A stretch of 64,000 nt of DNA, taken from contig CANPXV010000002.1 in assembly GCA_947586855.1 (NCBI GenBank), forward strand, positions 57,353 through 121,352, written 5' to 3'. Below the pieces are notes generated by a model. The model saw only the letters and a program-made list of their open reading frames with translations. It had not been told where the DNA came from and ran no database searches. Below are positions 17,956 through 35,917 of this stretch, piece by piece (position 1 is the first letter of the stretch; each line of letters begins with the position of its first letter). This DNA comes from an uncultured Clostridia bacterium (GTDB lineage: Bacteria > Bacillota > Clostridia > Christensenellales > CAG-314). The translations under genes and the position numbers were made by a program.

Positions 17956-18044
17956 GGAGAGATGGTCGAGCGGTTTAAGGCACACGCTTGGAAAGCGTGC
18001 GAGGTTAACAGCCTCCGCAGGTTCAAATCCTGTTCTCTCCGCCA
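17956..18044 (+). tRNA. tRNA-Ser(GGA)
   Basis: cloverleaf with anticodon arm CACGC-TTGGAAA-GCGTG, long variable arm, GTTCAAATC T-loop, encoded CCA. Confidence 0.95.
17987..18044 (+). repeat. left att copy (58-bp direct repeat, inside tRNA-Ser)
   Basis: identical to 26621-26678. Confidence 0.95.
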
Positions 18045-18133
18045 CAAAATGGGCAAAAATTGGCTAAAAATGAGCAAAAATAGCCCAAAAACAAGGGAAA
18101 CACGCAAAACGTGTCTCCCTTTATTTTTGCCTC

Positions 18134-18155
18134 TGACACTAAATTTGACACTAAA
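18134..18155 (+). repeat. integrase arm-type sites (TGACACTAAA x2)
   Basis: 12-bp-spaced direct repeats; same motif occurs three times at 26510-26543. Confidence 0.65.
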
Positions 18156-19182
18156 TTTTTTTGTGGAATACCTCGGGATAATGATCCAGATAGCCGGACA
18201 TGTCCACCTTGGAACGATACACCGTCATCGTATCCGAATGTTTGACCTGCTCCAAATCGAACGCCTCGACAATCTCGTCCATTATATCCCGAAAGCTGCC
18301 GTCGGACAACTCGCCCTTGACGTTCTGTAAGAAACGAACAACAGGCTCATTTACATTTTGCGTATTGAAAAGATAGCAATCTCTACAATCCAGATTGAGA
18401 GTGTGAAAAAACCGTTTGCAGCGATACGGTGCCGGGCACTGCTTAGTGAGATACTTGCCCAAATAATTCACCACCTGCTGCTTAGAAGAGCCGGGAACTA
18501 TGCAGCATACAGTACTAAACCCGGCTTTCCAATCAATACAGTTGAATATCTGATTGCCGAACTCAGAATAAACAAACTCACCGGTGTGTGGGTTGATTGC
18601 CGGCGTCAAACGCAGCAAACAATTGCCAAGAAGAGCGTGCATGTGGTAACCGCCCTTTTCAAACTCCTCGTATGTAGCAATAGCCTTTACATCGGGGTTA
18701 GACTTACGCAGCATAACCATAAACTCCTTGTATGTGGCATAAAGCAAATCCTTGTCCGAGCGACAACGTGGGTCGGAAAAAGTCCATGTACAAAAGTACT
18801 GCCAATTATTCTCGCCCAAAGCATAGTTGTAAAAACGACTTTTGCTCTCCCTTGCTGCACGCTTGCGTGACGCAATCAAATCTGCAATCTTGACCGAGGG
18901 GTCGGCCGGGATAAGTGTGCCGCCCACCGACTTCCATCGCTGAGCGCTTATTGCTTCGGCGAATTCAAAATTTGTGACATAGTCCGAAACCATATCCGCA
19001 TCAAGCGCTACATGCTTGGGAACCCGGAAGGGCTTGGCAAACTTCAAAACTTCCACACCACTTGTTTCTGTTGTGGATATGACGCTGTCAAAATACTCGT
19101 AATCGATACGAACAATCTGTCCGTCCTTTTCGTAAACATTAGATACTTTTTCTCCCGTGTCCTTGTCAAAAAGATAGTTCAT
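18151..19182 (-). CDS. HUH rolling-circle replication initiator
   Basis: motif 1 YFCTWTF, motif 2 GYHMHALL, motif 3 YLGKY. Confidence 0.85.
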   Translation of the reverse strand: MNYLFDKDTGEKVSNVYEKDGQIVRIDYEYFDSVISTTETSGVEVLKFAKPFRVPKHVALDADMVSDYVTNFEFAEAISAQRWKSVGGTLIPADPSVKIADLIASRKRAARESKSRFYNYALGENNWQYFCTWTFSDPRCRSDKDLLYATYKEFMVMLRKSNPDVKAIATYEEFEKGGYHMHALLGNCLLRLTPAINPHTGEFVYSEFGNQIFNCIDWKAGFSTVCCIVPGSSKQQVVNYLGKYLTKQCPAPYRCKRFFHTLNLDCRDCYLFNTQNVNEPVVRFLQNVKGELSDGSFRDIMDEIVEAFDLEQVKHSDTMTVYRSKVDMSGYLDHYPEVFHKKI

Positions 19183-19248
19183 TGTCACCTCGAAATTTTA
19201 TAAAAAACGCCATGGGCAATGAAAAAATTGCCCTTTTTGTCTACTGTT

Positions 19249-19275
19249 GTGCCACCAGTATCAAGTAGGTGGCAC
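19249..19275 (-). promoter_or_regulatory. double-strand origin hairpin (nick site)
   Basis: GTGCCACC-TACTTGATACT-GGTGGCAC on the - strand; the loop contains CTTG|ATA of the phiX174/pC194 type; lies just upstream of rep. Confidence 0.75.
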
Positions 19276-19540
19276 ATGGCCCACTGCGTGGGCCGATACG
19301 GACTCACCGCCACAGCCGTGCGCTCGGCTACGCTCGTCGCTGCGCTGCTGCTGCGGTGAGGTGTGTGTTACATGTTGTGGCAGGTAGGGGGAGGCAGATC
19401 GCCTCCCCTGCGGGGGAGCCTGACCTCTGACGGCTGAGCTCGTCAAGGTCGCCGGCGAATTTATCCCTCCCGCCCAAGGGCGTGAGCATAAAGCTCGCCG
19501 CTCTCTTGACGGTCACCCGCAGATGACGTTGCCTGCCTCT

Positions 19541-19984
19541 CTACGGGGAGTTTGGCGGCGCCGGTGGTTGGGCGTTTGCCTCCGTTGACGGCACAGGCAG
19601 CGTTGTGGGCGCCGAAACGGAGCTTTGGCCGGGGATTGTGTCCAGAACGTCCTTGTCCGCCTTGGCGTCCCTCGTGCCCTTGGATAGGGCCGAAAGCTCC
19701 AACTCAAATTGCGCACGGTACTGTTGCAGCAATGCCTTGGCCTTGCGGTTCCACCAGAACAAACGACGCCGTGGGACGTAGTTGGCCACCTTGAAGGCAA
19801 GCTCGAAGTTGCTTTCCGCACAGGCAAGAGCCTGCTGTTGCAAAAATATATCCGTCGCTGCGTCAAACTGATTGAGCAGCAGCTTGCGTGCAGCAAGATA
19901 GAACTCCTCACTAAACTGCGCCTTGTTGGTTTCCAGCTCGGCAAACAGCTCATAATATTCAGATAGAAAGTCATGCAGCTCCAT
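19541..19984 (-). CDS. hypothetical alpha-helical protein (prophage)
   Basis: 147 aa, RBS GAGG, overlaps the Zot stop. Confidence 0.6.
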   Translation of the reverse strand: MELHDFLSEYYELFAELETNKAQFSEEFYLAARKLLLNQFDAATDIFLQQQALACAESNFELAFKVANYVPRRRLFWWNRKAKALLQQYRAQFELELSALSKGTRDAKADKDVLDTIPGQSSVSAPTTLPVPSTEANAQPPAPPNSP

Positions 19985-20879
19985 AAACTGTCCTCATAAT
20001 GTACTCTTGCAGCGTTTCGTCGCTGCCGGACTTTGCCCACTCCTTGCGCAGATCCTCGGCGTCCCCGGGATAGAAACCCCTGGGCGCAGACTGACGGTAG
20101 ATCTGTTTGCTTATCTCCAATTGAAGCTGCGCATCAGACTGCCGACCCTGCGCATGAGTGCCAAAGGAAAAATCCTTGGCTGTGCCCGGGAGAAATGCGT
20201 CAAAGTAACACGCCGATGTGTACGCCTCAAACACATTGCCCTCGTGGATATATTCCTCCCGGGAGTAGTTGGTCAAGCTGTCGTTATCCACGTACCGCTC
20301 CGCTGCTGCCAGGCTGTCCCAGCTTCTGAGAGAGAACCTCGACGCCAGAATGTTGCCCATGCGGTCATACTCATGTTCCAGCTTGTACACTTCCACTATG
20401 CGGCCGGCCAACTGACGGATATTGAGATCGCACAGCAGCAGCCGCTGCAAGTCCAGATAGATATCCAGACCGTAATGCCGGTGCTCCTCGTAGAACCTAC
20501 TCACCCAATCCGGCAGTGCCTTCTTGTCTTTGTTGCGGCTATTGTAATAACGTTGCACTTCGGTTAAGCCAATCACTGCGCCCGGCAACACATTTGTAAC
20601 CGGCACATAATCGTTTTCCAAACCGAGGTGGAAACCATCAACGTAAAAACTACTGCGCCACTTGTTGTAACCTACATGGGCGCTCACCGGGAAGTTGGTA
20701 TAAACCGGCGGAGTGGTCGGGAGAGTATAACCCAGGCGCTCATCCAGAGCGAGCACCCGGTCCCGACAGCTCCAAAGCAGCTCATAGGCCTCACGGCTGT
20801 TACCTAAATAACGCAGCATCTGACTGACCAGGTACGCCGTCTTGCCCGCCCCGGGCTTGCCGAATATTATAGTGATCAT
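19971..20879 (-). CDS. Zot/pI-like morphogenesis ATPase
   Basis: N-terminal GKPGAGKT; TEVQRYYNSR (DEAQ-like); HRHYGLDIYLDLQ..D.NIRQL typical of the Zot family; no TM segment seen. Confidence 0.85.
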   Translation of the reverse strand: MITIIFGKPGAGKTAYLVSQMLRYLGNSREAYELLWSCRDRVLALDERLGYTLPTTPPVYTNFPVSAHVGYNKWRSSFYVDGFHLGLENDYVPVTNVLPGAVIGLTEVQRYYNSRNKDKKALPDWVSRFYEEHRHYGLDIYLDLQRLLLCDLNIRQLAGRIVEVYKLEHEYDRMGNILASRFSLRSWDSLAAAERYVDNDSLTNYSREEYIHEGNVFEAYTSACYFDAFLPGTAKDFSFGTHAQGRQSDAQLQLEISKQIYRQSAPRGFYPGDAEDLRKEWAKSGSDETLQEYIMRTVYGAA

Positions 20880-22282
20880 CCCTTGCGCCCCTTTGCCTTA
20901 TTGACTATCCAGACAACAAGCCGTACCGGTGCAGATATTATGTACCAAAGGATCTTCACAAGCCATTTGAGACCTATCCAGATACCTTTGAACGCAACAC
21001 GCAGCACCGGGAAGAAAATGGACAAAATTCCAAACAGCAGCAATGCGCCGAGAAGAACGAGGATCCACCAATTAGATTGAAAAAACTCTTTGACGCCGTT
21101 CCAGAACTCATTCCAGCTTTTAACAAACTCCTTCCACCAAGAAAAAGGATCATCTATTTCAGGATTATTATCTTGTTCGTCACGACCCGTTTGCTTGTTG
21201 CTTACGACACCCAGGTTGTATGTCTGGCCACGTTCGGCAAACATAAGGCGCAAGATAGTCACCTCGCTAACTTTTTCATAGTCAATCATGCGGCCCATCG
21301 TCTGGTTGTGTACCTGGTAACGGCCTTCGTAAAAGCGCAGGACCCATTGGTAGTCCTCCAAATCCTCTTTGACGTCATCCTGCAAATCCTCGTTGCTCAC
21401 AAAGCTCGACACGCTCTCAATCCTATTCCAGATATGCTTTTGGCCGCCAAAGCCCCAGGTGTCGTTTGCAACGACATCGGAGTAACTTAGCGAAACAAAT
21501 TTAGTGGCCGGGTCCGAACTCGCCTTGTCTACCACTGTGCCGAACAATGTATCCTCTCTCCACCAATACTGCTGGACAAATTGGACATCGGCCTCGTACA
21601 AATCGTCTATGCGGTGATTGGTAGAAAAAGCGACATAAAAGCTATCGCAACTATCCTGCATGAAGGAAAAGCCGTTAAGATACCGAACATAACCGACACG
21701 CATTTTTTTAATGGGTATAACCTCAGTGTACTGCTCACCATATTGCACCTTGCCATCAACGGTGACGGCCATGTAGCAGCGTGCAACCTCGTAGGAGACC
21801 TCGTCCGTTTGGTTGCCGTTTGGCAGCGTAGACGTCAGCTCAGAACCGAACGGCAGACGGTAGATAGCGGATATATCATAATAGCGCAAAAGCGCAGAGC
21901 GAAGGGTAAAACCTTCCACCATGTACTTGCCCAGAGCACCGTCCAGAGCAATCAGCTGCAACTTGTAGTTGTACCAATGCCGCTCAGACTGTTCCGGTGC
22001 GTCCTGGCAAATGTTAATGCTCGATGCCGTCACGGCGTCTCCGCAGGGTTGGTAAACGTAAACAAACAGCTCGTCGCCTGCGCCCTCCGCGATCTGGATG
22101 ACGTCTATCGAGTGATCACCGCTTACAAGCGGGTATTGTCCGACATCGAAGTCCGGATCCTGTTGCAGATCCTCCAAGGGGCCGGTGTAGTCTGTGGACG
22201 CCGCAAAGGCAGCGGATGTCAATCCGCCGCCCAAACAGGTCAATAACAGCACCGTCAACATTACTATTGCAAATTTACGCAT
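20876..22282 (-). CDS. secreted, C-terminally anchored protein (pIII/spike-like)
   Basis: signal peptide MRKFAIVML..AFAA; C-terminal TM plus amphipathic basic tail; immediately upstream of Zot. Confidence 0.65.
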   Translation of the reverse strand: MRKFAIVMLTVLLLTCLGGGLTSAAFAASTDYTGPLEDLQQDPDFDVGQYPLVSGDHSIDVIQIAEGAGDELFVYVYQPCGDAVTASSINICQDAPEQSERHWYNYKLQLIALDGALGKYMVEGFTLRSALLRYYDISAIYRLPFGSELTSTLPNGNQTDEVSYEVARCYMAVTVDGKVQYGEQYTEVIPIKKMRVGYVRYLNGFSFMQDSCDSFYVAFSTNHRIDDLYEADVQFVQQYWWREDTLFGTVVDKASSDPATKFVSLSYSDVVANDTWGFGGQKHIWNRIESVSSFVSNEDLQDDVKEDLEDYQWVLRFYEGRYQVHNQTMGRMIDYEKVSEVTILRLMFAERGQTYNLGVVSNKQTGRDEQDNNPEIDDPFSWWKEFVKSWNEFWNGVKEFFQSNWWILVLLGALLLFGILSIFFPVLRVAFKGIWIGLKWLVKILWYIISAPVRLVVWIVNKAKGRKG

Positions 22283-22290
22283 AGCCCACC

Positions 22291-22857
22291 TCAAAAGACA
22301 ACATGATCGGGGACGACCTCGATGCCGGCAATGCCCCGACAGTAAAACATAAGTTCAAAGCAGTGCTTACCGTCGTGGCCCGTCACCACAAGCTTGTACA
22401 TGACTGCCTGCTGCGGGGCAAGAACTATTTGCACATCTCGCCCCGGATAGACAGCTTGCAGCATGTCCTCTAAAAACATGTCTTTGGCGTGCAGTTCGAA
22501 GCTGCTTTCGCCTTGGACAATACCAAATGCAGCGGAGACGTCTTTGCCCAGCAGCGTATCCAGATAACTGTGCGGCACACCGTCCACGTTATACACAAAG
22601 TCCTCCTCCGAGACCGGCACCACATACACGGTGTAGCCATGTTTCAGACCGAACTGCCTGACATCGAGGCGCACATCCCCCAGGCGGTACACAGCGTCCC
22701 GGTGCAGACGCTTCGAACCGGAAGAAAGGTACACGAACTCAAACGAAGTTGTGAACCAATCTGAATTGTAACCCCAGACGACCACAAAGACGGCACAAAG
22801 GATGACAAGCAAGACAATCGTGCAAATGGTAATTATTTTTTCTTCATGCTTGTCCAT
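22291..22857 (-). CDS. membrane protein with N-terminal TM (prophage)
   Basis: IITICTIVLLVILCAVFVVVW then SDWF; RBS GAGGTG. Confidence 0.65.
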   Translation of the reverse strand: MDKHEEKIITICTIVLLVILCAVFVVVWGYNSDWFTTSFEFVYLSSGSKRLHRDAVYRLGDVRLDVRQFGLKHGYTVYVVPVSEEDFVYNVDGVPHSYLDTLLGKDVSAAFGIVQGESSFELHAKDMFLEDMLQAVYPGRDVQIVLAPQQAVMYKLVVTGHDGKHCFELMFYCRGIAGIEVVPDHVVF

Positions 22858-22865
22858 AGTGCACC

Positions 22866-24032
22866 TCAGAACACCAAGTCAGTCAGACCACCGACAGATT
22901 GGACTGAAACAGTAAATATTGACTGGTCAAAACCGAGATTACTATATGTTTTAGACCAACCATCGCAAGAAATAGTTATGTTAAATTTATAATCTTTAGA
23001 AAAACAACTCCTACCCCACGTAGAGTCAACAGTCTTGCCGGAGTTAAAAGTGCACAAATGGTTAAGAATATCCAACGTAGGCTTAAAGTCTTTTAAATCA
23101 CTATAAGTTGCAGTATCCTTGAAGGATCTCACAATGTGACCACAAGAGCCTCGCTGACAAGCCTCTTGCCCCATATTGCATCTAATGGTAGCCATATAAC
23201 CATTAGCCATTGTCGGAAATTGAATAGAAAGAGAAGGGACTGCGCTATTGTCAATAGTCCCAATGGTATATGTTATTGATCCAGACGACGTTGTCGGAGG
23301 ACCAGATACATACATATTGCCAAAAGGCATACCATTTCCCTCAACAGTTCCGTCGGCTTTTAATATAAGCTTACCAGGTTGTCCGGCAATGCTAATCGTA
23401 GTTTCCACACCGGAAACTCTTTTTTTGTAGTCCACGTTGCAGGTTGCAAATTTGCTGTTGTCGTCACGAGAAGTGACCTTTATCTCAATCTGCTCGCCAA
23501 AAGCTTGCAAACATTGAACATTGGCCGTCAACGCACCGTCCTCGGTCGGTGTGACGGTAACATAGTCAGTTACAGTTTTGCCGCTTGCAAAAGCAGACGA
23601 CGGGTTCTTCCAGGCAATCGACCAATCGACCGCCTTGTTAGTGGCGTCGGAAGGGTCGATTGTTGCAGTCAACTGTTGCGCACTTTCGGCAATGGACATT
23701 ATGCCGTAGTCGCCGAACTGTTCACGAGGGATGGCAGCGCTCATGAGGCGGATGCCGTTATTGGCAGCTTGTGCAGACTGCATGCCGCCATTGTCATCCA
23801 CGACAGGCTCTACCTTTTCAACTTCACCGCCCGCTTTGGCCTCACCGCAACGGACGCAGAGGCCGTCCTCGCCGTAGTTATGACCAAAAAGACAATATTT
23901 GTTCCAGTTAGAAAACCAATCTGTCAATACGCCGGTTACTATTACCGCAATTATGAGCAGAATGGCCAGTGTTACTGCGATCCACTTGCGGTGGTCGCTG
24001 GCCGCATGGGCCCTGAATGAATAGTTACTCAT
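22866..24032 (-). CDS. membrane-anchored Ig-like (Big_2-type) protein (prophage)
   Basis: N-terminal TM then DWF; QLTATIDPSDATNKAVDWS Ig-like motif; RBS GGAGGT. Confidence 0.65.
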   Translation of the reverse strand: MSNYSFRAHAASDHRKWIAVTLAILLIIAVIVTGVLTDWFSNWNKYCLFGHNYGEDGLCVRCGEAKAGGEVEKVEPVVDDNGGMQSAQAANNGIRLMSAAIPREQFGDYGIMSIAESAQQLTATIDPSDATNKAVDWSIAWKNPSSAFASGKTVTDYVTVTPTEDGALTANVQCLQAFGEQIEIKVTSRDDNSKFATCNVDYKKRVSGVETTISIAGQPGKLILKADGTVEGNGMPFGNMYVSGPPTTSSGSITYTIGTIDNSAVPSLSIQFPTMANGYMATIRCNMGQEACQRGSCGHIVRSFKDTATYSDLKDFKPTLDILNHLCTFNSGKTVDSTWGRSCFSKDYKFNITISCDGWSKTYSNLGFDQSIFTVSVQSVGGLTDLVF

Positions 24033-24328
24033 TGTTTACCTCCATGTGATTTGTAAGCTTTTGTTTCGTCGATCACGTGCGATCGATATCCGGCACGATA
24101 TGCACGCTGCACCTCGGTAAGCTGCAACGGTTTGCCGTTTTTGTCCAACTTGACCTCGCCTTCGTTAGTCAGGCGGACGTTATGTTCCAACTCGTAAGTA
24201 GCCTTTGCAAACTTTCCGTGCGGATTGAGCAATGTCAGCTCTTTACCAGTTTCGTTGTTACGAACCCGGGTGCCGATCTGCTTGCCCCCTTTGCCTTTGA
24301 CAGGTTTCACCTTGTTCCATTTTGCCAT
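24029..24328 (-). CDS. small basic hypothetical protein (prophage)
   Basis: 99 aa, Lys/Arg-rich, RBS AGGAGGTG. Confidence 0.65.
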   Translation of the reverse strand: MAKWNKVKPVKGKGGKQIGTRVRNNETGKELTLLNPHGKFAKATYELEHNVRLTNEGEVKLDKNGKPLQLTEVQRAYRAGYRSHVIDETKAYKSHGGKQ

Positions 24329-24461
24329 TGAATAATCACCTCCTGATAGATATTTTTTACACCGCCCAACAGCACGGCGATGAATGGAAAAGGACTGTTT
24401 GGCACAATCCCTCAGAAGCCCCGCAGAAACCTATCGAGCTGCGTCTGCGGTCGCAACAATA

Positions 24462-24731
24462 TTACTTGACAATGTTTTTGACCACCACACTGTCGCCGAC
24501 TACCTCGACTTCAAGCTGCACCTGCTGCTCGTATCCCAATGTGCGGATATCCTCGGTAGTCCAAAAGGTGAGGATCTGAGGATCCAGATACATCCCTCGC
24601 TGCTTATCCGCAGTAGCAGATAAAAGCTTTTCGCCCTGGACGAACGTGTAGCAATACTTGTTAGTGTTTTTGGAGGCGGTTGCCGTTCTGCCCAAAAAGT
24701 TTGCGTTTACCAATGCTTTGATGCCTGCCAT
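24462..24731 (-). CDS. putative ssDNA-binding protein (pV-like)
   Basis: 89 aa, beta-rich pattern, first gene of the operon, RBS AAGGAG; function inferred from size and position only. Confidence 0.45.
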   Translation of the reverse strand: MAGIKALVNANFLGRTATASKNTNKYCYTFVQGEKLLSATADKQRGMYLDPQILTFWTTEDIRTLGYEQQVQLEVEVVGDSVVVKNIVK

Positions 24732-24898
24732 AGTGTTACATTTCTCCTTTGCCACCAACATTGTCGGGTGGACTTGATATATATTCCGGGTTACGCTCCC
24801 GGTGAACGTCTTAACGGGAACCCCCGATGGGGCACTCCATCGAGAGCAGATCTTCGAGGTATAAAGCTCAGTGCCGAGCCGAGGAGAAAACCCCTTGA

Positions 24899-24978
24899 TT
24901 TAGCAAAATGCTAAATCTACAAATATTATATTCAGCAAAATATTAAATGTCAAGACAAATATTCAAAGTTATGCTAAA
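24899..24978. promoter_or_regulatory. three 17-bp operator-like sites of the prophage switch
   Basis: perfect palindrome TTTAGCAAAATGCTAAA (24899), variants at 24931 and 24962. Confidence 0.7.
24925..24953 (-). promoter_or_regulatory. consensus promoter of the prophage replication/structural operon
   Basis: TTGACA-17 nt-TATAAT; the spacer is operator 2. Confidence 0.8.
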
Positions 24979-25001
24979 AATTTTACAAGAGGATAAAGAA
25001 A

Positions 25002-25319
25002 ATGATTAAAATTAAAGAATTACGGATAGAAAAAGGCTTGTATCAAAAAGATATAGCCAAATTGGTTAACAAAACAATTGCATGTATAAGCGATTGGGAA
25101 AAAGGAAATACCGAGCCAAGCATTAGCGAAATAGTTAAACTAGCAGATTTTTTTGAAGTTTCGACAGATTACTTGTTAAACCGCACAGACGACACCGGGC
25201 TGGTGGAAGTACACAGCGATCTGACACCGGACCAACAGGAGCTACTTGACTTGTACAACCGAATGAACTACCGGGACAAAAACCAATTACTCGGCTTTGC
25301 AAAGGGGCTTGTTTATTAG
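25002..25319 (+). CDS. XRE/Cro-CI family HTH repressor
   Basis: IKELRIEKGLYQKDIA..WEKGNTEPS..LADFFEVSTDYLL. Confidence 0.92.
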   Translation: MIKIKELRIEKGLYQKDIAKLVNKTIACISDWEKGNTEPSISEIVKLADFFEVSTDYLLNRTDDTGLVEVHSDLTPDQQELLDLYNRMNYRDKNQLLGFAKGLVY

Positions 25320-25355
25320 TACCCTTGTTCTACCGGGAAAAGGAGCCGGCAGAAC

Positions 25356-26543
25356 ATGAGAACAGAAAACTATCTAATAGCCCTCGAACGAATTGACGGC
25401 ATGCTGCTGCAAGTTATTGGTGCCATGAAGGCCGAAATTGTTAAGCAGCATCGGAACTCCGACGATCAGAACGGGAACCAAATGCAGATCGAAGGAGCGA
25501 AATTGACAAAAGTAGACATCAAAGGAATATCTGTTGACCACAAGATACGGAAAGACGGAAGATTTCAGGCCAGATACACATTGGAAGGAGTGCAGCACTC
25601 TGTATACGGAAAGACACCGGACGAGGCGCTGCGCAAAGCCATTGACGGCTACAAAGGAAAACGAAAAACAAAAACGCAAACGTCCACCTTTGCAGAGTGG
25701 TACAATCGCTGGATGACGCTATACAAAATAAAGAAGCTGCGACCCAACACCCTGAAAAGCTACAACTACACCACCAACAAGTATCTGAACCCAAGGCTCG
25801 GCAAGAAGAAACTAAACCAGCTTGACACTAACACGCTGCAAGAAGTACTGAACGATATAAAACGACCACGACAACAGCAGATTGCCGGGAATATTTTAGT
25901 CGCATGTATAACAAAAGCTTATACCAGCGGAGTTATAAAAACAAACCCTGCACTGGGTATTGAAAAGACGCAGCACCACTACAACGAGCGTCGAGCACTG
26001 ACAAGCGAGGAAATGCAACGGCTGCTTGACACTATACATGGGGACAAGTTCGAGCTCCTGATATACGTCTATTTATATGCCGGACTGCGCCGATCGGAAG
26101 CGTTGGCGCTGCGATGGAGCGACATAGACATGCAAAAACAGACGATAACGGTGCGACACCAGGTAAACGAACAGCGGGAGCTGACGGAAACCAAAAGTGA
26201 CAAAGGCAACAGAACATTGCCGATACTGCCCCCACTGCTCGACAAGCTGAAACAACAAGAGCAACACGGAGATTTTTTGTTTACCTGGCGTCCCTCCTTG
26301 GTAACCCACGAATTGCGAGTTCTGTTTGACAAGCTCAACATGCCGGACATAAATGTACACTGCTTACGACACACTTTCGCAACAATGCTGAAAGACATGG
26401 GCATACCGGAAGATTTACGAACAAAATGGATGGGACACAGCCGGCTGGAACACAAAGATCGCTATGAACACATCCGTGAGGAGTATGAGGCCAAACAAAC
26501 AGAACTGCTGCGACACAAATTTGACACTAAAAGTGACACATAA
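25356..26543 (+). CDS. tyrosine integrase
   Basis: arm-binding RKDGRFQARY..YGKT; catalytic GLRRSE, HCLRH, MGH, RY. Confidence 0.93.
   Translation: MRTENYLIALERIDGMLLQVIGAMKAEIVKQHRNSDDQNGNQMQIEGAKLTKVDIKGISVDHKIRKDGRFQARYTLEGVQHSVYGKTPDEALRKAIDGYKGKRKTKTQTSTFAEWYNRWMTLYKIKKLRPNTLKSYNYTTNKYLNPRLGKKKLNQLDTNTLQEVLNDIKRPRQQQIAGNILVACITKAYTSGVIKTNPALGIEKTQHHYNERRALTSEEMQRLLDTIHGDKFELLIYVYLYAGLRRSEALALRWSDIDMQKQTITVRHQVNEQRELTETKSDKGNRTLPILPPLLDKLKQQEQHGDFLFTWRPSLVTHELRVLFDKLNMPDINVHCLRHTFATMLKDMGIPEDLRTKWMGHSRLEHKDRYEHIREEYEAKQTELLRHKFDTKSDT
26510..26543 (+). repeat. integrase arm-type sites (TGACAC motif x3)
   Basis: 12-bp periodicity, overlapping the int stop codon. Confidence 0.65.
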
Positions 26544-26620
26544 TATAACCAAAATACAAGAAAAAGGGACTGTTTTGCGATAAAATAGCCCCTTTTTGTT
26601 AAAAAAACAAGCAAAATATC

Positions 26621-26678
26621 CTTGGAAAGCGTGCGAGGTTAACAGCCTCCGCAGGTTCAAATCCTGTTCTCTCCGCCA
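26621..26678 (+). repeat. right att copy (3' 58 nt of tRNA-Ser)
   Basis: identical to 17987-18044. Confidence 0.95.
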
Positions 26679-27064
26679 AAGCAGAATAATACGAACCCGA
26701 CAGATACTGTTGGGTTCGTATTGTTTTACGCAAATGATTGGTTTGGGGTTGTTGTTTCACAATAAAAAGTCATTTACGGATGTTGCGGGGTAAACTTGTA
26801 GCGTTCTTTTCATTCCTCCGTTTATTTGCCTTTCGGTGGTTGGTTGTAGCACGGCTCTCGCAGGCGTCAACGGGAGAAAAATTTGCATATAATTCGTAAA
26901 CAGTAAAGTGTCGGGCAGTAGTATGCTGTTCGGCACTTTTGTTATGCAAATTTTTCTTGGCTCATTCTTCGCCGTTGACGTCTGCAAGGAGATATGCAAG
27001 ATAGTAATACACACCGAGCTGCGCTCCTCCCGTACTTGCCGAAAGGCAAATATCTTGACGGAGG
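26671..27064 (+). repeat. cassette end, copy 1 (CTCCGCCA, hairpin, long nested palindrome)
   Basis: 26671-26836 matches 28076-28240 directly; ~26860-27051 matches ~28228-28415 in reverse complement. Confidence 0.85.
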
Positions 27065-27073
27065 AAATATAAA

Positions 27074-27385
27074 ATGACAAGAATCGATGAAAGGCAGGTA
27101 ATTACGGCGGACAATGTGAAGTGGCTCGGCGAGATGATCGCCCTTATGTCTGCCAAAAACAGTGACAAGATGTTTTGCCACAGCAAGGTAACGCAATTGT
27201 ATCGTGGGTTGATAAGCGATATATTCTACAATAATCAAAAAGAACTTTCAAAGTCAGACGAGATATTTGAAAGGACAATGCACGAAGTAGATAAAAATTA
27301 CGCTCATAAAGATGAGAATTATATTCCGACAGAGATAACTAGAAAGTCCATCGAGGGCACATTTTACAATTACGAACGAAGGTAA
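27074..27385 (+). CDS. hypothetical protein, possibly truncated or chimeric
   Basis: RBS GGAGG is part of the inverted repeat; the 3' end overlaps Mrr-homologous sequence in another frame. Confidence 0.4.
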   Translation: MTRIDERQVITADNVKWLGEMIALMSAKNSDKMFCHSKVTQLYRGLISDIFYNNQKELSKSDEIFERTMHEVDKNYAHKDENYIPTEITRKSIEGTFYNYERR

Positions 27386-28049
27386 AAATGTCGTAAATAA
27401 AAACGTAACTAATTTAAATTCAAAGTATTTGAGAAAATATGAGTCTTTTTTAGAGTTTCAAAATCTTTCACATAAGCAAGAGTCTGTCAAAGAAGATTTA
27501 ATTGAAGATAATGAAAAAGATTCACAAACTCCTTCTGAAAAGATGATAGCGTATTACGAAATAATAAAGAAAAGCGTTTGTGATGATTTGTTAAACAAAG
27601 TAATTGAACAAACACCAGATTTTTTTGAACAACTTGTTGTAGATTTAATTGTTGCGATGGGGTATGGTGGCAGTGTTGAAGATGCTGGAAGGGCAACCAA
27701 AAGAACAAATGACGAAGGAATTGATGGCTTAGTAAAAGAAGATAAATTGGGTTTAGACACAATTTATATTCAAGCAAAAAGATGGCAAAAGGGGAATATA
27801 GTTGGTAGACCAGAGATACAAAAGTTTGTCGGTGCTCTTGCAGGACAAGGAGCAAGTAAAGGTATTTTTATTACAACGTACAATTTTTCTAAAGAAGCCC
27901 TTGATTATAAGCCAAGAAATGACACATCCATAATTTTAATCGATGGACAAAAATTAGTAGAATTAATGTATGAATATGATATTGGTGTTAGTAGAGAAAA
28001 ACGCTTTGATATAAAAAGGATAGACAGCGATTATTTTGAATCTATATAA
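27339..28049 (+). pseudogene. mrr: Mrr-type restriction endonuclease lacking most of its N-terminal domain
   Basis: FFEQLVVDLIVAMGYGG, DEGIDG, IYIQAKRW, GIFITT, ILIDG motifs; frame opens after a stop at 27336 with no start codon or RBS. Confidence 0.8.
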
Positions 28050-28075
28050 TATTATATCGTTTTACATTATAGCCG

Positions 28076-28424
28076 CTCCGCCACAGCAGAATAATACGAA
28101 CCCGACAAGAGCTGTTGGGCTCGTATTGTTTTATGCTAACGATTGGTTTGGGGTTGTTGTTTTACAATAAATAGTCCTTTGCGAACGTTACGGGGTAAAC
28201 TTGTAGCATTCCTTCATTCCTCCGCATATTTGCCTTTCGGCAAGGACGGGAGGAGCGCAGCTCGGTATAAATTGTTTTATTGCATATCTCGTTGCAGACG
28301 TCAACGGCGAAAAATGAGCCCAGAAAATTTGCATAACAAAAGTGTCGAACAGCATACTACTGCCCGACACTTTACTGTTTGCGAATTACAAGCAAATTTT
28401 TCTCCCGTTGACATCTGCCGAAAG
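28076..28424 (+). repeat. cassette end, copy 2 (inner segment in opposite orientation)
   Basis: second CTCCGCCA, same hairpin and spacer, then the reverse complement of the copy-1 inner segment. Confidence 0.85.
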
Positions 28425-34187: not shown

Positions 34188-35186
34188 ATGGATACTTACG
34201 AACAACTGCAAAAATTGATTTTACAAAACGGCCTGGGCACCAAAATAGTCTCGGTGCAGACGGTTGCGGGCGGACTGACGCACAAAATGTATCGTGTGCA
34301 AACGGACAGGGCCGTCTACGCAATCAAGGTGCTGGACCCCGCCATAATGCGCAAAAAAGAGGCTCTTGGCAACTTTGATTTTTCCGAAAGGGTGGCCCGC
34401 ACAGCCGCACAAAACGGGATACACGCCGTTTGCGCACTGCAATTGGGCGGCAAGGTTGTGCAAAATGTGGACGGGGCGTTTTTGATGGTGTTTGAGTGGC
34501 TGGACGGCACGTCGCTGCGGCCCAAACAGGTAACGTTGCGCCACTGCAATGTCATCGGGCAAACGCTGGCCAATCTGCACAACACGGATTTTGGCGCATT
34601 GGGGGATACACCGCCGCAAAGCACGGCCACGCAGCCGCATTTTGACCGCTACATTGCGCAGGCACATCAACAAAACAAGCCTTTTGCGCAACATCTGCAA
34701 CGGGATGCGACGATGCTATCCGAGTGGGGCGTACGGGCAACGGAGGCAATGGACTGCCTTGGCGGCGAGACGGTCATCAGCCACACCGACCTCGATTGCA
34801 AAAACGTGATGTGGCAGGGGCTGACCCCGTTTGTGATTGATTGGGAGGCAAGCGGCCGCATCAACCCCGCCGCAGAGCTTGTGCAGGTAGCCTGGTATTG
34901 GGCGGGCGGCGATGTGGAAAATCTTCGCCAAAACAAGTTTGAGGCGGTGCTGAACGGCTACGTCGGGACGTATCGGGGGCGGCTGCACGGCTGCTGCGAC
35001 CTTGTGTGCGCCAATCTGTACCCAAAGTTAGCCTGGCTGCAATACAACCTGAAACGGGCGTGCGAGGGGACGGGGCCGACAGAGCTTGCCGACAGCGAAG
35101 TGACAAAAAGCCTGCAAGAGATTGAATATTGCGTCAATCAGATTGACGCTGTGATGCACATGCTGCAAGCGGTTTTGTGGCTGTGA
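34188..35186 (+). CDS. aminoglycoside phosphotransferase (APH)/choline kinase-like family protein
   Basis: GG-x-x-H..AIK, Brenner motif HTDLDCKN, IDWE; RBS AAGGAG. Confidence 0.8.
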   Translation: MDTYEQLQKLILQNGLGTKIVSVQTVAGGLTHKMYRVQTDRAVYAIKVLDPAIMRKKEALGNFDFSERVARTAAQNGIHAVCALQLGGKVVQNVDGAFLMVFEWLDGTSLRPKQVTLRHCNVIGQTLANLHNTDFGALGDTPPQSTATQPHFDRYIAQAHQQNKPFAQHLQRDATMLSEWGVRATEAMDCLGGETVISHTDLDCKNVMWQGLTPFVIDWEASGRINPAAELVQVAWYWAGGDVENLRQNKFEAVLNGYVGTYRGRLHGCCDLVCANLYPKLAWLQYNLKRACEGTGPTELADSEVTKSLQEIEYCVNQIDAVMHMLQAVLWL

Positions 35187-35347
35187 GCGGAAAGAGTAAC
35201 ATGTGCGGTTTGTAATGCTTGACGCCTTGTCATTACAAAAACACGCCCACGATTGAGCGGCAAAGCAAACAAGTGGCAAAAGAAAAAAAGAGTTCACTTT
35301 GCGTGGACTCTTTTCTGTTGTGATTGCGCCGAACCCTTTTCCGCATG

Positions 35348-35917
35348 TCAAACGGCGGTGTGGTCGCGTGCGGTATTTTTGCGCACAAAAATCGCCTTGA
35401 ACACTGTTCGCACAAGGGGCTGGATGAACAGCAGCTGCAAAAAAAATGCAAAGGGCAGGTTGTAGCAAATCAACTTTAACCAATTTGCGAGCAACGTTGC
35501 AAAATTGAACGTCGAAACGCCATACGGGTAGTACATGATGGCTGCAAGCAAGCTCATGGACGGGCACATGAGCCCCACCGTCGCAATTATTATTGCCGAC
35601 TCAAAAATAACAGGGTGCACGCTGCCCGGCTTAAACACACGGCACACCAGGCGGAAGCTGCACGGACTACCCAACACACATTCGAGGGTATAGGCGAGGG
35701 CAAATTCTACAAGTATTACCGCCCAAATGGGTATTGGGTGACCGAAAACGGCCACGCCTCCCATTGCGTTGATTGCGGCAATGACGCTTGGCTCTCCCGT
35801 GAGCTGCATAAAGGTGGCGCCGTTGATGACGTACAAGCTGTAAAACACATAGCCGTGCACCGTTATCACCACGGTGATGAGGGCAAAAATCATACGTTGA
35901 AACAAATTTTTGGGCAT
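35348..35917 (-). CDS. DUF2798-like membrane protein
   Basis: MPKNLFQRMIFALITV, N.P.AFF.QLLFIQPLVR..F pattern; multiple TM segments. Confidence 0.65.
   Translation of the reverse strand: MPKNLFQRMIFALITVVITVHGYVFYSLYVINGATFMQLTGEPSVIAAINAMGGVAVFGHPIPIWAVILVEFALAYTLECVLGSPCSFRLVCRVFKPGSVHPVIFESAIIIATVGLMCPSMSLLAAIMYYPYGVSTFNFATLLANWLKLICYNLPFAFFLQLLFIQPLVRTVFKAIFVRKNTARDHTAV

Follow-up and report, generated by a model that had tools for sequence, protein, structure and literature searches.

A probable rolling-circle phage related to filamentous phages, integrated in a tRNA gene of an uncultured gut Clostridia bacterium

Filamentous phages are recognized by two hallmarks, an FtsK-like ATPase and a highly hydrophobic α-helical major coat protein, and the commonest replication initiator among them is Rep_trans (PMC13595969). 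In the survey by Roux et al. (2019), inovirus-like sequences numbered in the thousands, and four candidate families had monoderm or wall-less hosts; coat proteins were sought there as proteins of 30–90 residues with one or two transmembrane segments, and attachment (att) repeats in tRNA genes served as a criterion of completeness and detection (PMC6813254). Sugimoto et al. (2021) described "Clade-1" gut Inoviridae of Clostridiales, which carry a stand-alone Zot protein and, in some cases, a tyrosine recombinase (PMC8530359). Here we analyse a stretch of 64,000 nucleotides from an uncultured Clostridia bacterium (contig CANPXV010000002.1, positions 57,353 to 121,352; hereinafter the window, whose own numbering is used throughout). 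It contains an 8,634-bp element that we consider likely to be a temperate phage with rolling-circle replication, complete and probably active, from a gut-Clostridia lineage akin to the filamentous (Tubulavirales-type) phages.

Elements of this kind are already published (Roux et al. 2019; Sugimoto et al. 2021), and the unusual part is a clade without a small hydrophobic coat. The element is predicted to be filamentous-phage-like in replication and control, and probably in export. It encodes the FtsK-like morphogenesis ATPase (pI/Zot) that is a hallmark of Tubulavirales and of the realm Efunaviria. The second Tubulavirales hallmark, a hydrophobic α-helical major coat protein (~30–90 residues, one or two transmembrane segments), was not found. 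A preliminary description of the locus had stated that Zot/pI plus an HUH-type replication initiator (Rep) defines filamentous phages; the current definition differs and combines the FtsK-like ATPase with the hydrophobic coat (PMC13595969). Because the small coat, one of the two defining features, was sought and not found in the clade, we do not file the element as a proven member of Tubulavirales.

The genomes of Clade-1 (PMC8530359) and of the monoderm candidate families (PMC6813254), compared here by description, are circular single-stranded DNA (ssDNA) phage genomes of 5.6–9.4 kb from Clostridiales or Firmicutes. As in the element, their Zot is a stand-alone domain lacking the C-terminal extension of M13 pI, and their Reps are variable and plasmid-derived. 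They were recognized by a match to a major coat or by small transmembrane proteins, none of which was found here. Classical Inoviridae (M13/f1, CTXphi) share with the element a pI/Zot ATPase, rolling-circle replication from a hairpin-rich intergenic region, the lack of lysis genes, and structural genes placed on one strand, with the largest membrane protein just upstream of the ATPase, as pIII/pVI. In the element this largest protein has a signal peptide and a C-terminal anchor, as in classical Inoviridae, and the repressor is XRE/RstR-like, as in CTXphi. Unlike classical Inoviridae, the element has a Zot without transmembrane segment and C-terminal domain, no secretin, no hydrophobic coat of 30–90 residues and a monoderm host; it falls outside Inoviridae sensu stricto, which are defined by a pI with a transmembrane segment and a periplasmic domain, a secretin and a diderm host. 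It also has its own tyrosine integrase, unlike CTXphi, which integrates via host XerCD. Its Rep is of the two-tyrosine HUH type and not the Rep_trans type most often found in filamentous phages (PMC13595969).

Integration site and mobility

The element occupies the 3' end of the gene for tRNA-Ser(GGA) (17956..18044, + strand), which was identified by ARAGORN and by Rfam (tRNA, 53 bits). The final 58 nt of the gene (17987–18044) are the left att copy (attL core). The right copy (attR core; 26621..26678, + strand) is 100% identical to it and represents the displaced original 3' end of the tRNA. The cores form the 58-nt repeat that the preliminary description had noted; it is exact and direct, with a spacing of 8,634 bp, and a chance origin of an exact 58-mer repeat is ruled out. 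The insertion is the result of site-specific recombination into the 3' end of tRNA-Ser(GGA), in which the identical 58-nt core rebuilds the tRNA.

Ten intact open reading frames (ORFs) lie between the att copies, and all ten are full length compared with their homologues. The genes for an XRE-family repressor and the integrase are on the + strand; the other eight are on the − strand and read leftward. The integrase gene (25356..26543, + strand) adjoins attR and encodes a tyrosine integrase of 395 residues, with matches to Pfam Phage_integrase (69 bits, 5.8e-19), a SAM-like domain (3.1e-11) and phrog_1 (3e-63), and with the motifs RRSE at residue 245, HCLR at 335 and RY at 369. The Phage_integrase match and the HTH_3 match of the repressor (see below), both above the Pfam curated cut-offs, and the ten intact ORFs bear out the earlier view of an intact prophage with its own integrase and repressor. 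The size of 8,634 bp fits a small circular filamentous-phage genome, and a circular or tandem junction is seen on a public contig (L075).

Thirty relatives were queried with the tRNA and its left flank. In two congeners, G011 (L070) and G005 (L071), the tRNA is followed at once by the sequence found from 26679 onward in the window, and both align unbroken across the joined flanks. In two further congeners, G009 (L069) and G001 (L073), the same tRNA holds the Rep-side end of a related prophage. Att repeats made of the tRNA 3' end, an adjoining integrase and empty sites in relatives together identify the element as a tRNA-integrating tyrosine-integrase prophage.

L075, a Logan contig of 7,620 nt, was retrieved via its homologue of the 472-residue protein of the element (p472). 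Specifically, L075 1–894 matches window 18880–17987 (99.3%), L075 835–4093 matches window 26680–23422 (97.8%), and the overlap between the two is the att core. Read in window orientation, the contig runs from the integrase-side end (26620) through the 58-nt att to the Rep-side end (18045), which is the attP junction that the preliminary description had proposed to look for. Because a de Bruijn contig spans a 58-nt repeat only where no competing path survives, the joined form dominated in the L075 sample. The junction of a tandem double lysogen would be no different, and a free circle is therefore inferred, not proven. The phage has been observed in three situations: integrated, missing from an empty site, and with its ends joined. 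Terminal overlaps, a sign of circularity, were absent from L012, L013, L015, L074, L075 and L076.

In one public metagenome run (X11), a contig with a depth of 88 joins the tRNA to the downstream block via a single att copy (window 17986/26621), at a host depth of ~5–9. This attB-type empty site most likely belongs to related strains that are more abundant in that gut community.

Replication and control regions

The rep gene (18151..19188, − strand) encodes a putative rolling-circle initiator of 345 residues, with matches to Pfam REP_ORF2-G2P (31.2 bits, cut-off 27.8) and phrog_3419 ("rolling circle DNA replication initiation"). The motifs FCTWTF at residue 132, HMHAL at 182 and YLGKY at 242 assign Rep to the two-tyrosine type of the HUH superfamily, since the uTuTu, HUH and YxxKY motifs are all present along with a candidate cognate nick site in a hairpin loop. 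The Reps of phiX174 (gpA) and of the pC194 class carry the same three motifs and nick within CTTGATA, after CTTG. Rep is 46% identical to the Rep of related loci L008–L011 and only 22% identical to the Rep of L003/L005.

Upstream of rep is a non-coding gap of 352 nt, the putative origin region (19189..19540, − strand). Its ssDNA fold has an energy of −89.1 kcal/mol (z = −6.89), and 0 of 100 shuffled sequences folded as well. A putative nick-site hairpin, GTGCCACC-TACTTGATACT-GGTGGCAC, is located at 19249–19275, and its loop TACTTGATACT contains CTTGATA. Across five loci that share the Rep type, the loop does not vary, while its stem covaries to GTGCTACC/GGTAGCAC and ATGCTACC/GGTAGCAT. The loop differs in loci whose Rep is only 22% identical, and conservation of the hairpin is limited to loci with the same Rep type. 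Rep and hairpin resemble a cognate Rep-origin pair. The origin placed here by the preliminary description is supported in part, namely by the ssDNA fold and by the loop of the hairpin.

A cluster of long GC-rich hairpins occupies ~19330–19540. The distal 200 nt of the origin region are ~80% conserved even in loci with a Rep of 22% identity, and this conservation across the Rep swap fits a Rep-independent cis function. The distal hairpins are thus candidates for a complementary (minus)-strand origin or a packaging signal. The swap of the Rep module is seen in L003 and L005, which keep the distal hairpin cluster and have the divergent Rep and the different nick loop. Another related locus, L012, has a plasmid-type Rep_1 and genes of a ParE/RelB toxin-antitoxin pair, has no integrase, and is probably episomal.

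The switch region and leader (24732..24953, − strand) contain a promoter, operator-like sites and a conserved leader. The leftward promoter, TTGACA-17-TATAAT (24953..24925), matches the sigma-70 consensus at 12/12 positions. A palindrome with perfect arms, TTAGCAAAATGCTAA, lies at 24900–24914, just downstream of the −10 box, and a copy with three mismatches lies at 24932–24946, within the promoter spacer and 32 bp from the first. An operator-site search of the window gave seven matches against 2.25 expected, two of them in the switch region. The XRE-family repressor (25002..25319, + strand; 105 residues) is divergent from the operon and matches HTH_3 (51 bits, 1.1e-13) and phrog_8 (2e-20). Its best NCBIfam match is the RstR family, to which the CTXphi repressor belongs, at 53.7 bits, below the cut-off of 80. 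The layout suggests a simple repressor switch with candidate operators; of the repressor and operators reported earlier, the repressor is confirmed and the operators are supported in part, by the one perfect-arm palindrome and its degenerate copy. At the other end of the leftward operon, past the Rep stop codon, is an intrinsic terminator (18093..18121, − strand) with a 13-bp stem, six GC pairs and a T-run.

The leader itself (24735–24870, − strand; ~135 nt) is 83–90% identical in L003 and L020, where the promoters are unrelated and the protein encoded downstream is only ~80% identical. One stem of the leader shows a compensatory change, from CCACC/GGTGG to CCGCC/GGCGG. The fold of the leader RNA is unexceptional (z = −1.9), and an Rfam scan returned tRNA only. 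The conserved stretch may function as a leader RNA or, in the ssDNA, as a cis element. A 145-nt RNA of filamentous prophages was considered as a counterpart and gave no sequence match.

Two small soluble proteins are encoded at the start of the operon. The first gene (24462..24761, − strand; 99 residues) has a probable true start at 24731, which gives a protein of 89 residues beginning with MAGIK; only six homologues were found among 5.8 billion proteins, all of 89 residues. The protein designated p99basic (24029..24328, − strand; 99 residues) has a net charge of +11 and a motif, QRAYRxGY, that is conserved in 10 loci. Its AlphaFold2 model (predicted local distance difference test, pLDDT, 87.8) consists of three β-strands and two helices, and no fold match was found in the PDB (best E 0.1). 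A helical coat was rejected as an identity for p99basic, as the confident model is a small β-α fold and not a hydrophobic helix. It is a candidate DNA-binding or nucleoprotein component; a DNA-coating role is suggested by its charge and position only.

ATPase, membrane proteins and particle

The zot gene (19971..20879, − strand) encodes a stand-alone P-loop ATPase of the Zot/pI family, of 302 residues, with matches to Pfam Zot PF05707 (35 bits, cut-off 20.3) and phrog_197 (2.9e-12). A Walker A motif, GKPGAGKT, starts at residue 7 and a Walker-B-like motif, IGLTEVQ, at residue 103; both are kept across 24 homologues. The family profile of these homologues (34–87% identity) matches the N-domain of Neisseria meningitidis Zot (PDB 2R2A) at 4.6e-9, and HerA appeared only faintly in the same PDB search. 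No match of the ATPase to VirB4/TraC was found in Pfam, PHROGs, NCBIfam, PADLOC or the PDB; among these families, the profile matched the Zot N-domain only, which agrees with the pI-type grouping proposed in the preliminary description. The pairing of a Zot/pI-type ATPase with an HUH Rep likewise stands, with both Pfam matches above the curated cut-offs. A reading of the module as a defence system was rejected, as PADLOC gave only a 17-bit mad8 match for Zot. The host genome has a single zot gene.

Zot is followed by p147 (19541..19984, − strand; 147 residues), whose gene start overlaps the end of the zot gene; the zot start in turn overlaps the p472 gene. No Pfam, PHROG or NCBIfam match was found for p147, and a homologue lies directly after Zot in 40 of ~53 related loci. 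No ORF of the element matches a secretin family in Pfam or PHROGs.

Three membrane proteins are encoded upstream of Zot, in agreement with the preliminary description. The largest, p472 (20876..22294, − strand; 472 residues), has a signal peptide, a β-rich ectodomain (residues ~60–365), three long C-terminal helices, two of them transmembrane, and a basic tail. Its AlphaFold2 model, built with 70 homologues, has a pLDDT of 90.4 and a predicted TM-score (pTM) of 0.76. Against the PDB it gave only weak matches to arrestin/VPS26-like β-sandwiches, with a TM-score of at most 0.16, and the PDB fold search gave no match for a pleolipovirus VP5-like fusion protein or pIII, both of which had been considered. 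Against predicted viral structures, the top match is ORF1 (66.6 kDa) of Acholeplasma phage L2 (E 1.9e-5, probability 0.99, 564 columns), with a TM-score of 0.20 and a root-mean-square deviation of 24 Å. The p472 family has no Pfam or PHROG model and comprises 1,913 clusters at 50% identity in public metagenomes; a profile search over 1.84 billion proteins was evaluated for its best 150 matches. The family could serve as a marker of the phage lineage, and p472 is a candidate adsorption, entry or tip protein.

The other two membrane proteins are anchored at the N terminus. In p188 (22291..22857, − strand; 188 residues) a transmembrane anchor (residues 8–26) precedes a domain of ~160 residues; no family match was found in Pfam, PHROGs or NCBIfam, and homologues are present in 14 related loci. 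In p388 (22866..24032, − strand; 388 residues) the anchor is followed by a Cys/His knuckle motif (CLFGHNYGEDGLCVRCG) and then by Ig-like repeats, with a weak Big_2 match (17.9 bits). Relatives of p388 carry Flg_new (Listeria-Bacteroides repeat) or Big_2 domains (best E 3e-32), and p388 is a candidate receptor-binding protein.

A variant of the phage is found on L074, a 9.4-kb ENA contig. Its Zot is 99.3% and its Rep 98.6% identical to those of the window element, and p147, p99basic and the XRE repressor are 100% identical. By comparison, residues ~200–388 of p388 are 22–40% identical and residues ~200–400 of p472 are 36–60% identical. The hypervariable cassettes correspond to window 21138–21681 (the middle of p472) and 22898–23422 (the C-terminal half of p388), outside which the phage variants are 97–100% identical. 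Such hypervariable cassettes, limited to two exposed proteins, typically mark host-recognition proteins and argue for a particle being made; they also suggest an ongoing arms race with the host.

We propose the following cycle. In the lysogen, the XRE repressor would bind the palindrome and its degenerate copy, which overlap the leftward promoter, and keep the operon silent. On derepression, one long transcript would run from 24925 to the terminator at 18093, and the integrase would excise the circle. Rep would then nick the hairpin loop and release single-stranded circles of the coding (window minus) strand, for which the long hairpins at 19330–19540 would act as complementary-strand origin and/or packaging signal. 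The 89-residue protein and p99basic may coat the ssDNA, and cytoplasmic Zot with its constant partner p147 would drive the DNA out via a membrane site formed by the transmembrane helices of p472, p188 and p388. The Ig-like p388 and the β-sandwich ectodomain of p472 would be exposed for host recognition. The host cell would probably not be lysed, because none of the ten ORFs matched a lysis-protein family in Pfam, PHROGs or NCBIfam. The same searches gave no match to terminase, portal, capsid or tail families, as the preliminary description had also reported.

Several results weigh against a complete and active phage of the filamentous type. The coat was sought with a hydropathy scan of every ORF of at least 25 residues in the element; no small hydrophobic helical coat (25–100 residues, outside larger genes) was found there, or in L003, L005, L001 and L012. 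Hydrophobic segments are confined to the three large proteins and to ORFs nested out of frame inside other genes, and the intergenic gaps are too small for a coat gene in the element and likewise in L003, L005, L012 and bajarodino virus 12, a deposited phage genome. No wall-degrading enzyme that could open a way through peptidoglycan was detected, and Zot has no transmembrane segment by which to dock at the membrane. The first gene of the operon, called pV-like in the preliminary description, is not demonstrably an ssDNA-binding protein: comparison with M13 g5p by hhalign gave a probability of 0.2, and neither sequence nor profile searches matched gene V protein or any PDB chain. The attP junction, with its tandem alternative, was found on one contig only. 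Read depth was checked in eight public runs (X1, X5–X9, X11, X12), whose Logan contigs break inside the 58-nt repeat, and neither the attP joint nor excess coverage was seen there. Specifically, prophage and flank depths are 6.67 and 4.9–5.5 in X1, and 9.2 and 9.4 in X5. The element is mostly integrated in the runs examined, with prophage depth about equal to host depth; the excess coverage that the preliminary description had proposed to look for did not appear.

Small ORFs with coat-like features do occur in relatives. L024, whose Zot is 49% identical and whose Rep is of the same type, has an ORF of 48 residues, MEISLVKTGLGEKVPENYFGLFIAGVCVGMVFVLSAAVFVIVKVGKRK (L024:7939-8085), with one transmembrane helix and a KVGKRK tail. 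This ORF sits between the p388 and p472 homologues, the slot of p188 in the window element. L060 has a similar ORF of 52 residues, with a transmembrane segment and a basic tail, preceding Zot. The predicted layout of both, a hydrophobic helix and a basic tail, is that of a textbook coat protein. In addition, L015, L041, L049 and L055 have ORFs of 57–64 residues with two transmembrane segments adjoining Zot. The lineage derives from, or includes, canonical-looking filamentous phages. In the clade of the window element the coat slot is, by gene order, occupied by the membrane protein p188, and the coat may be unconventional, processed or very short. It is possible, if doubtful, that a lineage with Zot and three sizeable membrane proteins builds a different particle, either a p188-coated filament or an L2-like membrane-bounded particle; the latter, if true, would be the first evolutionary bridge from filamentous phages to Plasmaviridae.

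The match of the confident p472 model to L2 ORF1, its best among viral folds, bears on whether the element is instead an enveloped or pleomorphic budding phage like L2 of the Plasmaviridae, with p99basic condensing the DNA, three envelope proteins, and the P-loop ATPase loading the genome at the membrane. L2 (~12 kb) is, like the element, temperate, non-lytic and tRNA-integrating, and its host is a relative of Firmicutes; L2-like proviruses likewise integrate in tRNA genes (PMC12662186). The order of features in L2 parallels that of the element: ORF13, an Ig-like envelope protein; ORF14, a small envelope protein; ORF1, of 591 residues with two C-terminal transmembrane segments; ORF2, an 81-residue protein with two transmembrane segments; ORF3, a 312-residue P-loop protein; and then ORF4. 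The 57–64-residue ORFs just before Zot in the distant relatives recall ORF2 before ORF3, and the lack of a detectable small coat fits a budding phage as well. However, the TM-score of the fold match is low and its deviation large, and no link by sequence was found, as hhalign comparisons of p472 with ORF1 and of Zot with ORF3 were negative and ORF3 has no Pfam Zot match. L2 is a double-stranded replicon with DnaA-box origins and no Rep (PMC12662186), and its host is wall-less, whereas the host of the element has sporulation genes and is presumably walled, as sporulating Clostridia generally are, which would make budding hard. The coat-like ORFs of L024 and L060 also speak against an L2-like phage, which we regard as unlikely; the likeness between the p472 model and L2 is a lead, not a finding. 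Plasmaviridae are said to share no proteins with other viruses apart from the integrase.

The missing coat gene would also be explained if the element were capsid-less or helper-dependent, that is, an integrative ssDNA element that uses Rep and Zot for replication and export and borrows its coat or forms no virion. Rep modules swap freely with plasmid types, as the Rep_1 of L012 illustrates, and the two or three Zot loci in several genomes of the genus make co-resident helpers possible. But the genome of the window has one Zot locus, and three conserved secreted or membrane proteins with hypervariable receptor-type cassettes would serve no purpose if no particle were made. All seven genes of the module are, moreover, kept together in relatives with a Zot of only 36–89% identity, and one relative is on deposit as a complete, circular viral genome of faecal origin, so that we hold a helper-dependent element to be decidedly unlikely. 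A decaying or domesticated, immobile prophage remnant would agree with a coverage close to that of the host in the runs examined. The identical att copies, the ten full-length ORFs, the attP-type junction of L075 and the presence of both empty and occupied sites among congeners have already largely refuted this possibility, and it is extremely improbable. A temperate rolling-circle phage with filamentous-type export thus remains our preferred reading, and it offers a test case both for Zot-type DNA export through a Gram-positive envelope and for the universality of the coat protein as a taxonomic hallmark.

Relatives, host and distribution

The host is a metagenome-assembled genome (MAG) of 1.47 Mb, 92.9% complete. 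It encodes Spo0A (138 bits) and SpoIVA (358 bits), which supports at gene level the spore-forming firmicute of the preliminary description. The public runs containing the element come from three studies and are metagenomes of the rabbit gut, and the closest phage relatives are in MAGs designated "Lapin", under the title uncultured Clostridia bacterium. Christensenellaceae, Ca. Coproplasma, Ca. Limihabitans and Oscillospiraceae have more distant ones. Zot relatives were also found in assemblies labelled Akkermansia muciniphila and Corallococcus sp. (L025, L030, L034); these labels are probably binning or contamination errors and not true hosts.

The Zot family is present in 17 of the 47 species genomes of the host genus, in some with two or three copies, and in 5 of a sample of 300 genomes from the whole class, with four of the five belonging to the host's order. 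A Zot-type phage is thus common in a genus of small-genome uncultured gut Clostridia. The rarity in monoderm hosts asserted earlier holds for cultured isolates only; prophages are not rare, as these counts and the published surveys (PMC6813254, PMC8530359) indicate. Chronic non-lytic ssDNA phages can change host physiology without killing, and they are systematically missed by virus-finding tools.

Dozens of prophages in uncultured Clostridia and Christensenellaceae carry the gene module. In relatives with a Zot of 36–89% identity, it consists of an N-anchored Ig-like protein of 340–470 residues, an N-anchored protein of ~185 residues, a protein of 420–540 residues with a signal peptide and C-terminal transmembrane segments, sometimes a basic protein of ~115–140 residues, Zot, a member of the p147 family, and a variable Rep (two REP_ORF2-G2P types, or Rep_1 in L012).

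Among the 50,697 records of the INPHARED copy of GenBank phage records, a single relative was found, bajarodino virus 12 (PQ006185.1), a circular genome of 9,828 bp from rodent faeces that its depositors filed under Inoviridae. It shares with the element a stand-alone Zot (39% over 250 residues) and a p472 homologue (30% over 508 residues, 1e-54), and it also has an N-anchored Ig-like protein resembling p388, together with an XRE repressor and a tyrosine integrase. Directly after its Zot is a long ORF that matches the p147-family profile (E 3.1e-08 in the second iteration). It has no p188, p99basic or homologous Rep by BLAST, and no obvious small transmembrane coat ORF, and it is more distant from the window element than dozens of unannotated MAG prophages. 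No Zot-family member was found in IMG/VR by protein, full-alignment or motif-alignment scans.

A p472 homologue (38% identity, 1e-60) is encoded at 34351–35454 of MT835493.1, an unannotated 57-kb record titled "Bacteriophage sp." from human faeces. This record may be a host fragment that carries such a prophage and was filed as a phage.

Downstream of attR, in window 26671–28424, the last 8 nt of the tRNA and the ~160-nt block that follows them, with a terminator hairpin, have a second copy at 28076 (87% identity over 139 nt). Both copies include a palindromic stretch of ~200 nt, at 26860–27066 in one and, inverted, at 28213–28418 in the other, with 85–94% complementarity. Between these copies is a gene for an Mrr-like type IV methyl-directed restriction enzyme (27429–28049; PADLOC mREase_IV, 209 bits), with a GC content of 33–37%. 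This block, which is absent from the integrated variant L074, has the look of a second cassette, acquired at the tRNA hotspot that the phage also occupies.

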